In this document: positions 1,933 through 6,176 of the stretch, one piece after another
Layout of the letters: each line of letters opens with the position of its first letter
How positions within the stretch are numbered: position 1 is the first letter of the stretch
From: a virus
Taxonomy: Duplodnaviria; Heunggongvirae; Uroviricota; Caudoviricetes
Length of the DNA stretch: 6,176 nt
IMG/VR virus record: IMGVR_UViG_2671180770_000013
Direction: 5' to 3' (one strand)
Notes under the pieces: generated by a model
Seen by the model: only the letters and a program-made list of their open reading frames with translations
The model's database searches: none
Told to the model about the DNA's origin: nothing
Position numbers and translations under genes: made by a program

Positions 1933-2410
1933 CCAGCAAATCCGGTAATTTATCCCCTGCCCGCGCACACTGATTTGCGCCCTTTGCAATAAGGGTTTTC
2001 AGATGGTCAATATGACGTGGCGTTAAATCCGGGAACTGTCGCTGCATGGATAACGGAATGGAATCAAGCGTACTGGACAATGCCATCGCCAGTTTGCTGA
2101 GGGCGAAAACGCAAAAGTCTGAATCGATGAGCTTACCTTCGGTTACCTGATTTTTAAGTTTTTGAGCTACAGCCTGTTCTTCTGTCAGTTCAGCTCTGGC
2201 CCGAAGCAGCCTTTCCTCCAGTTCTCCCCCGTCATCAGGTGTTCTCTGATTGTGTTGTCGCCGCTCGCGATCTATCTCCAGTACAGTTTTAACGTCATAT
2301 AAAACTTCCCTCCCCCGACGTTCAACAGGAGGAACGCCCCATTTATCAAATGCCTGAACAGAGATACCGATGGAGGAGGCCATATCACTTTTATTCAATA
2401 AAAAGGCCAT
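1904..2410 (-). CDS. nu1: phage terminase small subunit (lambda Nu1-like)
   Basis: 168 aa from the ATG at 2410, which has GGAG 5 nt upstream. Resembles recalled lambda Nu1 (G.EVLYD, FC.F.LS, LD..PLS.QR.FP.L..RH.D.LK, LL.EYI). Sits directly upstream of gpA with a 29-nt overlap and about 215 bp downstream of cosN, as in lambda. Start is uncertain: ATG at 2428 and the ORF-track start at 2515 are alternatives but lack a Shine-Dalgarno. Confidence 0.8.
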   Translation of the reverse strand: MAFLLNKSDMASSIGISVQAFDKWGVPPVERRGREVLYDVKTVLEIDRERRQHNQRTPDDGGELEERLLRARAELTEEQAVAQKLKNQVTEGKLIDSDFCVFALSKLAMALSSTLDSIPLSMQRQFPDLTPRHIDHLKTLIAKGANQCARAGDKLPDLLDEYIRATTE

Positions 2411-2440
2411 CTCCTCTCCATAAGTCATCGATAAAAAGCG

Positions 2441-2588
2441 AAACAACAACCATGTGTTTTTGCAAAACCATTTGATATCATTGACATTTTTCGCATTGAC
2501 GACATCAAAACACATCGTAAGGTTGTTGTATTTATTTTATTTTCACCTTACTTATCAATTAGATATACCAAACAATTAAACAACAACC
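2441..2588 (-). promoter_or_regulatory. candidate cosB (terminase small-subunit binding region) with three GGTTGTTGT(TT) repeats
   Basis: Identical 11-mers AAACAACAACC at 2441-2451 and 2578-2588 (minus-strand GGTTGTTGTTT) and an inverted copy GGTTGTTGT at 2521-2529, with an AT-rich tract between the distal pair. Arrangement resembles lambda R1/R2/R3 but the repeat sequence differs from the lambda R sites as I recall them. Confidence 0.4.
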
Positions 2589-2626
2589 ACCCCCTCAAAA
2601 AATCTCATAAATAGTGAAAACGCGCG

Positions 2627-2638
2627 AGGTCGCCGCCC
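2627..2638 (-). other. cosN cohesive-end sequence (lambda-type 12-mer GGGCGGCGACCT on the minus strand)
   Basis: Plus strand reads AGGTCGCCGCCC at 2627-2638, the exact reverse complement of the lambda 12-nt cohesive end. Orientation and distance to the Nu1 start match lambda left-end architecture. Confidence 0.75.
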
Positions 2639-2837
2639 CGTAACCTGTCGGATCGCCGGAAAGGACCCGCAAAATGATAATAATTATCATCTACATGTCA
2701 CAACGTGCATCTACGCCATCAAACCACGTCAAATAATCAATTATGACGCAGGTATCGTATTAATTGATCTGCGTCAACTTAACGTAAAAACAACTTCAGA
2801 CAATACAAATCAGCGACACTGAATACGGGGCAACCTC

Positions 2838-3032
2838 ATGTCAACGAAGAACAGAACCCGCAGAACAACAACCCGCAACATCCGCTTTCCTAACCAAATG
2901 ATTGAACAAATTAACATCGCTCTTGAGCAAAAAGGGTCCGGGAATTTCTCAGCCTGGGTCATTGAAGCCTGCCGTCGGAGACTAACGTCAGAAAAGAGAG
3001 CATATACATCAATCCAAAGTGATGATGGATGA
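2838..3032 (+). CDS. small ribbon-helix-helix (Arc/Mnt-like) protein, possibly DUF3950/YlcI-like
   Basis: 64-aa ORF with ATG start and weak GGGG upstream. Arg-rich N-terminal tail, then NIRFPNQMIEQINIALEQKG-SGNFSAWVIEACRRRL, which matches the beta-strand/helix A/G-x-S-x-N turn/helix B pattern of Arc and Mnt (compare RWP/RMP ... NGRS(V/M)NSE). Contains an NFS motif that I recall as the DUF3950 signature. Confidence 0.55.
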   Translation: MSTKNRTRRTTTRNIRFPNQMIEQINIALEQKGSGNFSAWVIEACRRRLTSEKRAYTSIQSDDG

Positions 3033-3219
3033 ACATCCCGGTTTCTTCCACCATCGCACCGGAAAAGCGACTATGAGGGTAACCCTGCGTCTGTCAGCAC
3101 AGTAAAACCCGGTGTGCATCGTTTTTGATTATTCCCGCACACTCACGCAGAAGGAATTCCCCGTCGGGCTACGGTCATGGTTAATGCGGGAATACGGCGA
3201 CGATACAGCGCATAATGTG

Positions 3220-3768
3220 TCAGGCTTGAATACCTTTATCGAATCCCGGTAATAAAAACTGTCCCTGTCTCTCCAGACGTTCCAGCTTTGCAAGCAATTG
3301 AGGTTTTTTCGTTCTCCCCCAGCGATTGAGCAGACGGCCTGACATGCTGGCGACATCCTTCTCTTTCATGTACTCCAGCATTACGGCGTTACGTTCTGCT
3401 TCATAACTTTCGCTGTACTTACGGAGTTCTGCTGACATCCAGTTAAACGCATTGATATAGGCTTCTTTAACAGCATCGGCTTTTGCCCCGTTAAATCCCA
3501 TAACCAGCATAACGAAGCCACTAAAGTCCATGCGGTAGTAAATCTGTTTCTTGTCAAAAATACCTAAGTCATTGATTTTCTCGACGGCCCAAAAATGGGT
3601 TGTCGAGAATTCCTCAGAACATCTCAAACATTTAATAGCCCTAATCACATGCTGATGGCGTTTACCAAATGCCCTGGCAATCTGGAAGGTGTCAGTTACC
3701 GGTTGACCTTCTGCTGCGGTAACTAACTGGCGAAAGTCGAAGTCATGATTCGCAATTAATTCATTCAT
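3220..3768 (-). CDS. rha: Rha-family phage regulatory protein
   Basis: 182 aa from the ATG at 3768. N-terminal signature LVTAAEGQPVTDTFQIARAFGKRHQHVIRAI is typical of the Phage_pRha domain. The ORF-track start at 3837 is a GTG giving a 23-aa extension; the ATG was chosen by domain boundary. Confidence 0.7.
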   Translation of the reverse strand: MNELIANHDFDFRQLVTAAEGQPVTDTFQIARAFGKRHQHVIRAIKCLRCSEEFSTTHFWAVEKINDLGIFDKKQIYYRMDFSGFVMLVMGFNGAKADAVKEAYINAFNWMSAELRKYSESYEAERNAVMLEYMKEKDVASMSGRLLNRWGRTKKPQLLAKLERLERQGQFLLPGFDKGIQA

Positions 3769-3921
3769 GGCGTTGCCTGCTTCTTTGAAATGAACCTTTG
3801 CCGCACAGGAAACCAGCCCACCGAGGCTCGCCAGCACTAACTGGTATCCTCAAAGGCCCATTCCAAAGGGTCAGGTTCGGTGTTTATTGTGCGCTGCGGT
3901 GCGCGGTGAAATACCGGTACA

Positions 3922-3949
3922 AAAATGCCCCGCATCTGCGAGGCATTTT
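3922..3949. terminator. GC-rich hairpin flanked by T/A runs; candidate bidirectional intrinsic terminator between Rz and rha
   Basis: AAAATGCCCCGCA-TC-TGCGAGGCATTTT: 12-13 bp near-perfect inverted repeat. A U-run follows the GC core on both strands (ATTTTTG on minus, ATTTTCC on plus). Lies 40-65 nt downstream of the Rz stop. Confidence 0.4.
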
Positions 3950-3986
3950 CCTGAAAGTCACTTGTTAAATTTCAGTGAAATTAAAA

Positions 3987-4424
3987 TTATTTTAAGCACT
4001 GCGTCCTGATGTATTCCTGCAGGTAGTTAACCTGCGCGGTTATCTTGTCGATTCCACCTCGGAGACGGTAATAATTGAGTTCAGCATCTGCTGTAAGTCC
4101 TGGGCTTTCTCCATCGCCCATGCTGCTGGCTCCGGTCGTTGACTTTGCACAGGTGGCGGAGACTTGCAGGCGCTTACGCCCAGCAGAAACATCAGCACGG
4201 AGACTTTCGATAGTCGCATTAGCATCAGCAAGCTCCTTTGTGTATCTGGCGTCAAGTTCTGCTACATCACGTTGCCGCTTCTGCATATCAGCGATGATGG
4301 ATGTGGCTTTATCGCGCTGCTCTTTGTAGGCGATGGCGTTATCACGGTAATGATTAACAGCCCATGACAGGCAGGCGATAATGCAGATAACCAGAGCGGA
4401 GATAATAACGGTTACCCTGCTCAT
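3987..4424 (-). CDS. Rz: i-spanin Rz
   Basis: 145 aa from the ATG at 4424. N-terminus [31 protein letters not shown] closely matches recalled lambda Rz. Has an N-terminal transmembrane segment and a coiled-coil-like body. Its start overlaps the endolysin stop (ATGA). GGGGG Shine-Dalgarno upstream. Confidence 0.9.
4040..4225 (-). CDS. Rz1: o-spanin Rz1 (lipoprotein) embedded in Rz in the +1 frame
   Basis: 61 aa from the ATG at 4225 with AAGGAG 7 nt upstream. Signal peptide with lipobox (LLGVSA-C), then a Pro-rich mature region ([13 protein letters not shown]). Lies entirely inside Rz in another frame, as in lambda. Confidence 0.8.
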
Positions 4425-4918
4425 TGTTGCCCCCACAAACAGACTTCACGCTCAATCTCGCGGCGAGTCATCAGCCCTTTCCATTGCTTACCGCCAGCGT
4501 ATGTCCAGCGCCGTAGCTGATCACATGCGCTTTTGATATCGCCCTGGTTTATTTTGCGAAGAAGCGTCGATGTTCTGAAATTGCCAGCGCCCACGTTGTA
4601 AACGAACGAGTAAAGAGCGCCGCGCGTTGTTTCCGGTATATCGACTTTGATGTACGGGTTTATTTGTCTGGCGACCGTGGCAAGGTCTTTATTCAGGAGG
4701 GCTTTGCATTCTGCTTCGGTATACGTTTTACCGGGCATGATGTCTTTTCCGGTGTGTCCGTGACATACAGTCCATACGCCAACGATATCTTCGTATGGTA
4801 TGTAGCTGACACCTTCCAGGCCATCGTCACCACTCGGACCAGTGATGAGCACAGACGCTATGGCAACAGCCCCACCACCAATAGCAGCAGCAACGGCTTT
4901 TCGTAATGATGGAGGCAT
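4421..4918 (-). CDS. R: SAR endolysin (phage-21 R-type lysozyme)
   Basis: 165 aa. N-terminal Gly/Ala-rich signal-anchor-release segment ([20 protein letters not shown]). Lysozyme catalytic motif E-x8-D-x5-T ([24 protein letters not shown]). Near-identical to my recollection of phage-21 R and DLP12 RrrD. Confidence 0.9.
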
Positions 4919-5124
4919 TATTCACCTCTCACAGCCTTGCGCTTATCTTCTTTAATCTTGAAATAAAGGTTTGTCAGATACGTCAGCAGGCCAAACAGCA
5001 GACTCCCCAGCACACCTATCGCCACCCACTGGGACGGAGAGACTTTGTCCAGCAGCTGCAGTAACCAGTATCCCGTCCCCACCGCTGACGTGGTGTATGA
5101 CACACCCGTTGTGATTTTTTCCAT
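4918..5124 (-). CDS. S: pinholin (phage-21 S-type class II holin)
   Basis: 68 aa, [68 protein letters not shown]. Two transmembrane segments and a charged C-terminus. Stop overlaps the endolysin start by 1 nt. No in-frame upstream start for an antiholin form. Confidence 0.85.
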
Positions 5125-5167
5125 CTGATGTATGTCTCCGTCACCGCCGACAGAAAATGAAAGTAAA

Positions 5168-5204
5168 GGAAAACAAAAAGCCGCCAGTGTCGCCCACTGA
5201 CGGC
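5168..5204 (-). terminator. intrinsic terminator of a short late leader RNA (tR'-like)
   Basis: Minus-strand RNA GCCGUCAGUG-GGCGA-CACUGGCGGC (10-bp stem including one U-G pair) followed by UUUUUGUUUU. Ends about 44 nt upstream of the holin ATG. Confidence 0.5.
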
Positions 5205-5281
5205 CAACGCCGGGAGCCGTGATTATGGCATTCAGGCTCTGCTAAAAATGCCAGATAACATTCCGGCTCCCCCCCTGATTC

Positions 5282-5310
5282 AGGTTATAAATGACACAAT
5301 ATCTTGACAA
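5282..5310 (-). promoter_or_regulatory. candidate late promoter (pR'-like)
   Basis: Minus strand TTGTCA (5310-5305), then TATAAC after a 15-bp spacer or TAACCT after 17 bp. Lies about 105 nt upstream of the tR'-like terminator with a structured segment between. Identical in the second repeat copy. Spacing is suboptimal and the assignment is tentative. Confidence 0.25.
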
Positions 5311-5380
5311 CACCCATCACTGTCTGTCAGAAAATGTACTGCCAGATATAAGTATCATGTGAAACCCAACTATCCTTCTT

Positions 5381-5423
5381 AGCCAGTACTTCTCCGACGA
5401 AAGTCAGTACTGGCTGTTTTTTT
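5381..5423 (+). terminator. plus-strand intrinsic terminator directly 3' of the gene X stop
   Basis: AGCCAGTACT..(GAC-GAAA-GTC)..AGTACTGGCT: 10-bp perfect stem with an inner GAAA-capped 3-bp stem, then G + T7. On the minus strand no U-run follows the hairpin, so it is terminator-like only on plus. Confidence 0.5.
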
Positions 5424-5424
5424 A

Positions 5425-5808
5425 TTATGCTGCCGGTGCATTTATCTCCAGCACCAGACTTTCTATCTCAACGCCATACGCTGCATTTTTTGTAACATCC
5501 GTCAGCGTCAGCGCATTCAGCCCCAGTGTCAGACTGTCTTTTATGACCTGGAATGCCGGGCCAGCCACTCCATTCAGTTTCGGAGTAACCGTGGCACTGC
5601 CGGCGGTGAACACCAGCTCCAGCGTCTGCCAGTCGTTACCGTAATCGCCGAACTCCCCCAGCTTCGTGTTTCCGGCTTTCCTGTGATGCATCAGATTCAC
5701 TCTAGCCACCCACTGGGACGGAGAGACTTTGTCCAGCAGCTGCAGTAACCAGTATCCCGTCCCCACCGCTGACGTGGTGTATGACACACCTGTTGTGATT
5801 TTTTCCAT
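5425..5808 (-). CDS. chimeric ORF: pinholin N-terminal 35 codons fused in frame to the C-terminal 92 codons of an unidentified protein (gene X)
   Basis: ATG at 5808 is the duplicated holin start. Residues 1-35 are identical to the holin, with one synonymous difference. After the junction at 5704/5705 the frame continues through [92 protein letters not shown] to TAA at 5425-5427. Whether it is expressed or functional is unknown. Confidence 0.45.
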
Positions 5809-6063
5809 CTGATGTATGTCTCCGTCACCGCCGACAGAAAATGAAAGTAAAGAAAAACAAAAAAGCCGCAAGTGTCACCGACTGACGGCCAACGCCGGGA
5901 GCCGTGATTATGGCATTCAGGCTCTGCTAAAAATGCCAGATAACATTCCGGCCTCCCCTGATTCAGGTTATAAATGACACAATATCTTGACAACATCCGT
6001 CACTGTCTGTCAGAAAATGTACTGCCAGATATAAGTATCATGTGAAGTACATCTACCCGTTTT

Positions 6064-6099
6064 AGCCAGCGTCCTTCAGAGTGGGCGCTGGCTTTTTTT
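6064..6099 (+). terminator. plus-strand intrinsic terminator, copy-2 variant
   Basis: AGCCAGCGTCC-TTCAGAGT-GGGCGCTGGCT (11-bp stem with one U-G pair) followed by T7. Flanks match copy 1 but the stem interior differs while still pairing. Confidence 0.5.
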
Positions 6100-6100
6100 A

Positions 6101-6176
6101 TTATGCTGCCGGTGCATTTATCTCCAGCATCAGACTTTCTATCTCAACGCCATACGCTGCATTTTTTGTAACATCC
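6101..6176 (-). CDS. 3' end of unidentified gene X (continues beyond window)
   Basis: Same reading frame and C-terminus as the gene X segment in the chimera ([24 protein letters not shown], one Val-to-Met difference). Stop TAA at 6101-6103. Open to the window edge. Confidence 0.5.
   Translation of the reverse strand, partial: DVTKNAAYGVEIESLMLEINAPAA

Follow-up and report, generated by a model that had tools for sequence, protein, structure and literature searches.

The Pas RNAs are Hfq-dependent small RNAs (sRNAs) that were found by RIL-seq in EPEC E2348/69 and confirmed on Northern blots, with their coordinates, probes and orientation ('> < >') given in table S6 of that study (Pearl Mizrahi et al. 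2021, PMC8550237). The genes for two of them, pasA and pasC, are flanked by a sialic acid esterase gene on one side and the holin-lysozyme operon on the other; among 1,362 genomes the closest pasA pair was 22,551 bp apart and the closest pasC pair 48,389 bp (Zhu, Shabalina & Storz 2026, doi 10.64898/2026.05.13.724894). The EHEC homologues of PasA and PasC are EcOnc51/52. Such a locus is distinct from the true late leader of lambdoid phages (with qut/pR', a 6S-type short transcript and tR'; lambda, 82, 21, H-19B, 933W), which directly follows Q and precedes the esterase gene, as well as stx in phages that have it. The lysis genes that concern us here are those of the phage 21 S pinholin / SAR endolysin system; in the S21 holin the first transmembrane domain (TMD1) is the regulatory (SAR-type) helix and TMD2 is the hole-forming helix. 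Genome assemblies are also known to contain errors in which two versions of one locus are wrongly set in tandem (Ko et al. 2022, PMC9516828).

The window, by which we mean the whole stretch of DNA analysed, is the entire 6,176-bp draft contig CYAV01000159.1 of GCA_001277695.1. Its ORFs, Pfam matches and annotated relatives show it to be lambdoid prophage late-gene DNA, written in reverse orientation. Reading along the minus strand, one meets in turn the 3' end of an esterase gene, a spacer, nt 1-104 of a holin gene, a junction, the last 280 nt of an esterase gene, a second spacer, and a complete holin gene, followed by an RrrD-type lysozyme gene, Rz, a Rha regulator, a DUF3950 gene (+ strand), cos, and the small and large terminase subunits. 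The complete holin (4918-5124, minus strand, 68 aa) is a class II, P21 S-type pinholin that matches PF04971 (Phage_holin_2_1) essentially over its full length (111.4 bits, above the gathering score, profile positions 1-63 of 64), and its counterparts in relatives are annotated 'class II holin' or pinholin. With the RrrD-like (SAR) endolysin behind it (4421-4918, minus strand, 165 aa; PF00959, 155 bits; 'lysozyme RrrD' or 'SAR endolysin' in relatives) and Rz/Rz1 after that, it reproduces the phage 21 arrangement. The esterase, called only 'gene X' in the sequence-only reading of this DNA, is recognizable by homology as a SASA/DUF6645 sialate O-acetylesterase (NanS-p/YjhS-like), and relatives carry it under the annotation 'SASA family carbohydrate esterase'. 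The relatives referred to by handle are phage 434 (L001), the strains Z1322HEC0005 (L002) and A1 (L003), and a further locus, L004.

That reading had also described a unit repeated head to tail at 5021-5704 and from 5705 onward, and the repeat is indeed present. A repeat search of the window gave four co-linear direct-repeat blocks, at 5016-5179 / 5700-5863 (98% identity), 5170-5273 / 5855-5958 (93%), 5269-5386 / 5952-6069 (92%) and 5417-5500 / 6093-6176 (99%); that is, ~480 nt occur twice, at 5016-5500 and 5700-6176, spaced by 676-685 nt and, apart from one replaced block, 92-99% identical. Tandem Repeats Finder reported no repeat, because the period exceeds its 500-nt limit. The MAFFT alignment of the copies has 37 differing columns in an overlap of 472 nt, 25 of them within 5364-5417 and the remaining 12 scattered (~3%). 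The repeat had been supposed to continue past the window, yet the window is the whole contig and the contig ends inside copy 2; since it stops at 6176, repetition of 5501-5704 cannot be seen. Because the late genes read along the minus strand, the copy lying upstream is copy 2 (5705-6176). We agree that this is not a fresh in-situ duplication: the copies are too diverged, and they match two different natural phage alleles. The sequence-only reading had itself singled out an assembly error as the possibility to be excluded.

Copy 2 begins with the last 77 nt of the esterase gene, stop codon included (6100-6176, minus strand, up to the contig end), which match the corresponding ends of the L001, L003 and L004 esterase genes at 100% identity. 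Next to it, on the plus strand and antisense to the late genes, is a sequence (6022-6099) whose intrinsic terminator, at 6064-6093, precedes a T-run and was called by a terminator scan, on the plus strand. The PasC Northern probe (PMC8550237, table S6) matches exactly at 6047-6071, the PasC-specific sequence being CGCTGGCTAAAACGGGTAGATGTAC (6071->6047), and 76 of 78 nt are identical to the mapped PasC of E2348/69, with an identical terminator. On the strength of the probe match and this identity we assign 6022-6099 (+) as the pasC gene. The spacer between esterase and holin (5809-6021, minus strand), 99% identical to those of L001, L003 and L004, holds a weakened sense-strand hairpin (~5863-5890) and the holin ribosome-binding region. 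The copy closes with the holin fragment (5705-5808, minus strand), which is 100% identical to the holin 5' ends of L001-L004 and scores 45.8 bits with PF04971 over profile positions 1-34 only. Its length, given earlier as 105 nt, is 104 nt (5808->5705), or codons 1-34 plus 2 nt.

Copy 1 has the same layout and different alleles. Its esterase fragment (5425-5704, minus strand) comprises the last 280 nt with the stop codon and is 100% identical to positions 6001-6280 of L002. The plus-strand sequence beside it (5339-5424), likewise antisense to the late genes, has a PasA-type terminator stem, a CGAAAG loop and a T-run. Over 84 nt its identity to the mapped PasA of E2348/69 is 82%, and within the longer, PasA-type stem it shows a compensatory change from C-G to U-A relative to PasA. 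The conserved PasA seed GCCAGCACCU, which overlaps the terminator stem (fig. S5, PMC8550237), reads GCCAGUACUU in copy 1 (8 of 10 positions), a comparison that applies to copy 1 only, copy 2 being PasC. The PasA Northern probe found no match in copy 1 within 3 mismatches; for this reason we rejected PasA itself as the identity of copy 1 and filed the gene as a PasA-family variant. In the spacer that follows (5125-5338, minus strand), a strong hairpin and its T-run on the sense strand (5205->5179) closely precede the holin ribosome-binding site (RBS).

In both copies, then, an esterase 3' end is followed by a hairpin with a T-run on the plus strand and then by a minus-strand holin. This is the position and the antisense '> < >' orientation of PasA and PasC in E2348/69, and the 3' stem-loop plus U-tract adjoining the esterase stop codon is a further shared trait. 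Both putative sRNAs fold with a 3' stem of 11-14 bp followed by U7, at a predicted energy of -24.1 kcal/mol for copy 2 and -19.5 kcal/mol for copy 1. Position, orientation, similarity and terminator thus place both in the PasA/PasC family, although a search of Rfam 15 at a permissive E-value gave no family at threshold, Pas or other, and a chance match to ncr982 only (E = 0.45, copy-1 hairpin). Two hairpin interiors had been reported as replaced between the copies. Because copy 2 is PasC and copy 1 a PasA-family variant, the larger of these (5364-5417) is the known PasA/PasC dimorphism, an allelic difference. The consensus scan called no sigma-70 promoter for either sRNA. A perfect TTGACA stands 30 nt upstream of the mapped sRNA 5' end in both copies (5304-5309 and 5987-5992), with no acceptable -10 hexamer found at 16-18 nt from it in either; the lack of a called promoter agrees with a published proposal that processing generates the 5' end of PasA.

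Elsewhere, each of these alleles stands alone. The esterase and sRNA stretch of copy 1 is 100% identical in L002, a segment of its spacer is 99.7% identical in many genomes, and the best match of copy 2 outside the window is 98.9%. The fetched loci included 10 PasA-type, 8 PasC-type and 5 copy-1-type alleles, and none had two pas sites within one locus; similarly, none of the 98 fetched loci with a match to the holin 5' end had two such matches. All related top matches carry the module as a single copy. The comparison with related prophages that had been proposed to find single-copy versions thus recovers them for the alleles of both copies, and does not recover the tandem. The patchwork of identity between the copies and different relatives points to frequent exchange or conversion among modules. 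By these comparisons the repeated unit is an ordinary lambdoid-prophage module, consisting of an esterase 3' end, a pas sRNA gene on the opposite strand, a spacer and a pinholin 5' end, and E. coli strains often have several such modules, PasA-type or PasC-type, in separate prophages. Two distinct natural alleles, each single elsewhere, are what would be expected if two prophages of one strain had been strung together.

What sets the window apart is the junction at 5704/5705, where holin nt 104 abuts an internal T of the esterase gene. The two sides share no sequence, and breakpoint alignments showed no microhomology. The junction is in frame and creates a chimeric ORF of 127 aa (5808->5425, minus strand) composed of holin residues 1-35 and the C-terminal 92 residues of the esterase, with Pfam matches to PF04971 on residues 2-35 and to PF20350 (DUF6645) on residues 36-88. 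Compared with phage 21 S, the holin part keeps TMD1 plus the loop, lacks TMD2 and is fused to an unrelated esterase C-terminal domain; we know of no such holin-esterase fusion, and this one is probably not real. Its database entry, CTT82547.1, forms a cluster of one member from one contig among ~15 billion proteins, and is probably a spurious GenBank protein. A 161-nt junction query proved misleading, its halves being joined from single-copy loci, and was replaced by a 50-mer centred on the junction, which cannot seed on either half alone. Neither the 5,426 complete E. coli genomes nor the 50,697 phage records searched contained a match to this 50-mer, and exact junction strings were absent from the GTDB representative genomes, IMG/VR and the JGI metagenomes.

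The two breakpoints themselves are peculiar. Alignment with five relatives puts the end of the holin fragment, after 104 invariant nt, immediately ahead of a G/A site, and the start of the esterase fragment right on a T/C site. We scored these sites in 39 module-spanning loci, of which 36 are distinct, with population alleles serving as a proxy for the other prophages of the source strain. Holin nt 105 is G in 2 of the 36 alleles and A in 34, while the first esterase base after the junction is T in one allele (L002) and C in the other 35. The copy-1 haplotype has the rare base at 2 of 680 esterase and 4 of 207 holin positions, so that by this rare-allele criterion the joint chance of the breakpoints hitting one rare site of each gene is ~6e-5. 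An a-priori criterion, which counts a site as variable when one or more of 15 close alleles depart from the copy-1 haplotype, gives a joint chance of 0.0053; at each boundary site 14 of the 15 close alleles differ. We know of no biological process that predicts both breakpoints on allele-variable sites. The coincidence has the signature of two assembly-graph edges written as adjacent.

With all parts identified, the junction unique and both breakpoints on allele-variable sites, we consider the tandem to be a false duplication, in which two alleles of the prophage module were placed in series by an assembly error, at a probability of roughly 0.7; the join itself would be the work of the assembler or scaffolder. 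In all natural copy-2-like alleles holin nt 105 is A, and in copy 1 it is G, so a genome with both alleles would have a graph branch exactly there. One de Bruijn-graph edge would end at that branch vertex, just before nt 105, where the natural continuation of copy 2 is expected to read '...GTGGGTGGC-A-ATAGG' (for PasC-type spacer variants, with A at 5791). A second edge, appended minus the k-overlap, would then begin at its first allele-specific base, the esterase T as opposed to C. In this way the PasC-type piece (5705-6176) would have come to stand before a PasA-variant-type piece running on into holin, endolysin, Rz, Rha, cos and terminase, a false 'heterotype' duplication in which paralogous alleles are put in tandem and not assigned to two prophages.

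A plain de Bruijn contig cannot contain k-mers absent from the reads, so such an error calls for an extra step, in scaffolding or path writing, at which edges are joined without Ns. Some path writers may append the 'next edge minus k' at small estimated gaps, without Ns. The nearest known variants lie 46 and 54 nt from the true ends of the contig, values that are inconsistent as an estimate of the assembler's k. The product resembles published false heterotype duplications (PMC9516828) in that two diverged versions of one locus are adjacent and a spurious extra gene results, with the difference that those involve the two haplotypes of diploid vertebrates and this one paralogous prophage modules of one haploid bacterial genome. 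The spacing is also at odds with the published survey of Pas genes: there, copies of the same Pas gene were never less than 22 kb apart, and here a PasC and a PasA-family gene are 683 nt apart, probably as an artefact. If the tandem is an artefact, it would show that in short draft contigs of E. coli with several prophages, spurious tandems and ORF chimeras can be recognized from their letters alone, through breakpoints at allele-variable sites.

It is unlikely, though it deserves weighing, that the contig reports a real hybrid prophage, in which illegitimate recombination between two related phages or prophages linked a PasC-type phage, at holin nt 104, to a PasA-variant-type phage, at an internal esterase site. 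Since the junction has zero shared k-mers, a pure graph assembler would have needed spanning reads to produce it; each copy is an intact natural allele whose sRNA body and terminator are complete, and mosaic exchange among these modules is rampant. The in-frame junction, with both Pfam halves in one ORF, is expected of a selected fusion, yet arises one time in three by chance. Set against this, the arrangement is seen in one draft contig and is absent from very large collections, both breakpoints fall on allele-variable sites (chance <=0.005), and a non-homologous crossover between resident prophages would also rearrange the chromosome between them. A real hybrid would have two sRNA genes, Hfq-dependent by homology, each with ~320 nt of native upstream DNA, and between them a predicted late-expressed ORF that fuses holin TMD1 to the esterase C-terminus and retains the RBS and start codon of the holin. 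As the first case of Pas sRNA genes in tandem (PasC-PasA), it would be a natural experiment on the dosage and diversification of sRNAs, and also on a pinholin fragment reduced to TMD1; the TMD1-esterase chimera, a putative product, could then act as an antiholin-like modulator of lysis timing.

We give a much smaller chance to a real but old in-situ duplication of the 684-bp unit, after which gene conversion from another prophage would have swapped the sRNA body. The holin 5' and esterase 3' blocks are 98-99% identical between the copies and the differences are concentrated in 5364-5417, as such a history would have it, and the patchwork identity to different relatives speaks for frequent conversion. 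However, an old duplication should recur in related genomes and its junction is in none, the breakpoints at variable sites are left unexplained, and several conversion tracts would have to be invoked for the twelve differences that are scattered beyond the sRNA body.

Finally, the unit had been taken for a Q-dependent late leader, with a candidate late promoter and a tR'-like terminator. The two do resemble each other, in belonging to the same late operon, in lying upstream of the lysis genes and in having hairpins with T-runs in the spacer, but the repeated unit is downstream of the esterase gene and shares zero sequence with the leader. In phage 434 a Q82-like Q gene and the terminator following it are ~3.7 kb upstream of the holin, with three small genes and the 1.85-kb esterase gene in between (Q 272-961, terminator 1010-1035, esterase 2432-4282 and holin 4730 in L001 coordinates), and the layout in strains Z1322HEC0005 and A1 is like that of phage 434. 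The ORF list of the window contains no Q gene. Compared with the window, the 300 nt downstream of Q in these three relatives matched no better than chance inside the repeat (E = 0.77 or weaker), and the consensus scan found no sense-strand sigma-70 promoter in 4900-6176, in either copy. The sense-strand hairpin and T-run just upstream of the holin RBS in copy 1 would suit a leader, as would the terminator marked upstream of the holin at the equivalent site in the phage 434 record. The phage 434 record also has a terminator at the site equivalent to the post-esterase hairpin, on the strand antisense to the late genes. The main hairpin, formerly read as a late-gene terminator after gene X, has its T-run on the plus strand and is the terminator of the antisense PasC or PasA-variant sRNA. 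Gene order, promoter scan and leader comparison contradict the leader assignment, and we regard a Q-dependent leader (pR', tR') standing twice in series and altering lysis timing as very unlikely; the predicted change in Q-dependent read-through loses its basis, as the unit is not the leader and the tandem itself is probably absent from the genome. In the corrected anatomy, the esterase-holin spacer is a PasA/PasC sRNA locus.

The second of the two hairpin interiors reported as replaced (5179-5205) is the sense-strand hairpin of the spacer, which three substitutions weaken in copy 2. The predicted energy of this hairpin, upstream of the holin RBS, is -21.6 kcal/mol in copy 1 vs. -12.4 kcal/mol in copy 2, and the copy-1 version was called as a terminator-like site on the minus strand.

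The spacing between the sRNA terminator and the esterase (SASA/DUF6645) stop codon separates the related loci into two forms. In the window the stop codon directly adjoins the terminator in both copies of the module (5425 and 6100), as it does at PasC of E2348/69; at PasA of E2348/69 and in phage 434, unlike the window, about 150 nt lie between the two (comparing window positions 5425 and 6100 with 2767-2916 of L004 and 4283-4432 of L001, the phage 434 locus). The spacer length is therefore dimorphic, at approximately 300 vs. 450 nt, and this dimorphism is why some relatives match the window in two pieces and others in four.

A perfect TTGACA hexamer occurs on the plus strand in each copy (5304-5309 in copy 1 and 5987-5992 in copy 2), 30 nt 5' of the mapped PasA/PasC 5' end. 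No –10 hexamer of acceptable quality was found 16-18 nt from TTGACA in either copy; published work on the Pas sRNAs has proposed that they are processed out of a longer RNA. Immediately 5' of the holin ribosome-binding site, the minus (late-gene) strand carries a hairpin that is conserved and has a T-run (5179-5205 in copy 1 and 5863-5890 in copy 2), with a predicted energy of –21.6 kcal/mol in copy 1 vs. –12.4 kcal/mol in copy 2. This hairpin may act as an attenuator or mark a processing site, or it may have no role at all. Position 5192 is C in copy 1 vs. T in all 20 of the 20 aligned alleles.

If the copy junction is an assembly artefact, the database entry CTT82547.1 is spurious, namely, the chimeric minus-strand ORF (5425-5808) deposited in GenBank as 'phage protein YjhS encoded within prophage CP-933O'. 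The closest complete genomes, compared over window positions 2400-3990 (matches H101-H124), belong to the O121:H19 and O145:H28 lineages; in these genomes IS66 or IS3 insertions sit somewhere in the window-matching stretch, and the window itself has none. No complete genome matched the entire window at 99% identity or more.

On the minus strand, positions 2627-2638 match the lambda cohesive-end 12-mer GGGCGGCGACCT exactly, with the DUF3950 gene on one side and the gene for the small terminase subunit on the other; the cos site, where the packaged phage genome ends, thus falls within the window. A 71-aa ORF (4040-4255, minus strand), embedded in a different frame within Rz (3987-4436), carries a lipobox-like LLGVSAC motif and is probably the embedded Rz1 o-spanin, which is annotated in phage 434.

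The enterobacterial prophage holin was also found on contigs of GTDB MAGs (loci L010, L015, L018, L023, L041 and L044) named as Candidatus Nanosynbacter, Bacillota, Veillonella parvula, Segatella copri and Geobacteraceae. Such holin contigs in non-enterobacterial MAGs most likely reflect binning contamination with Enterobacteriaceae prophage DNA.
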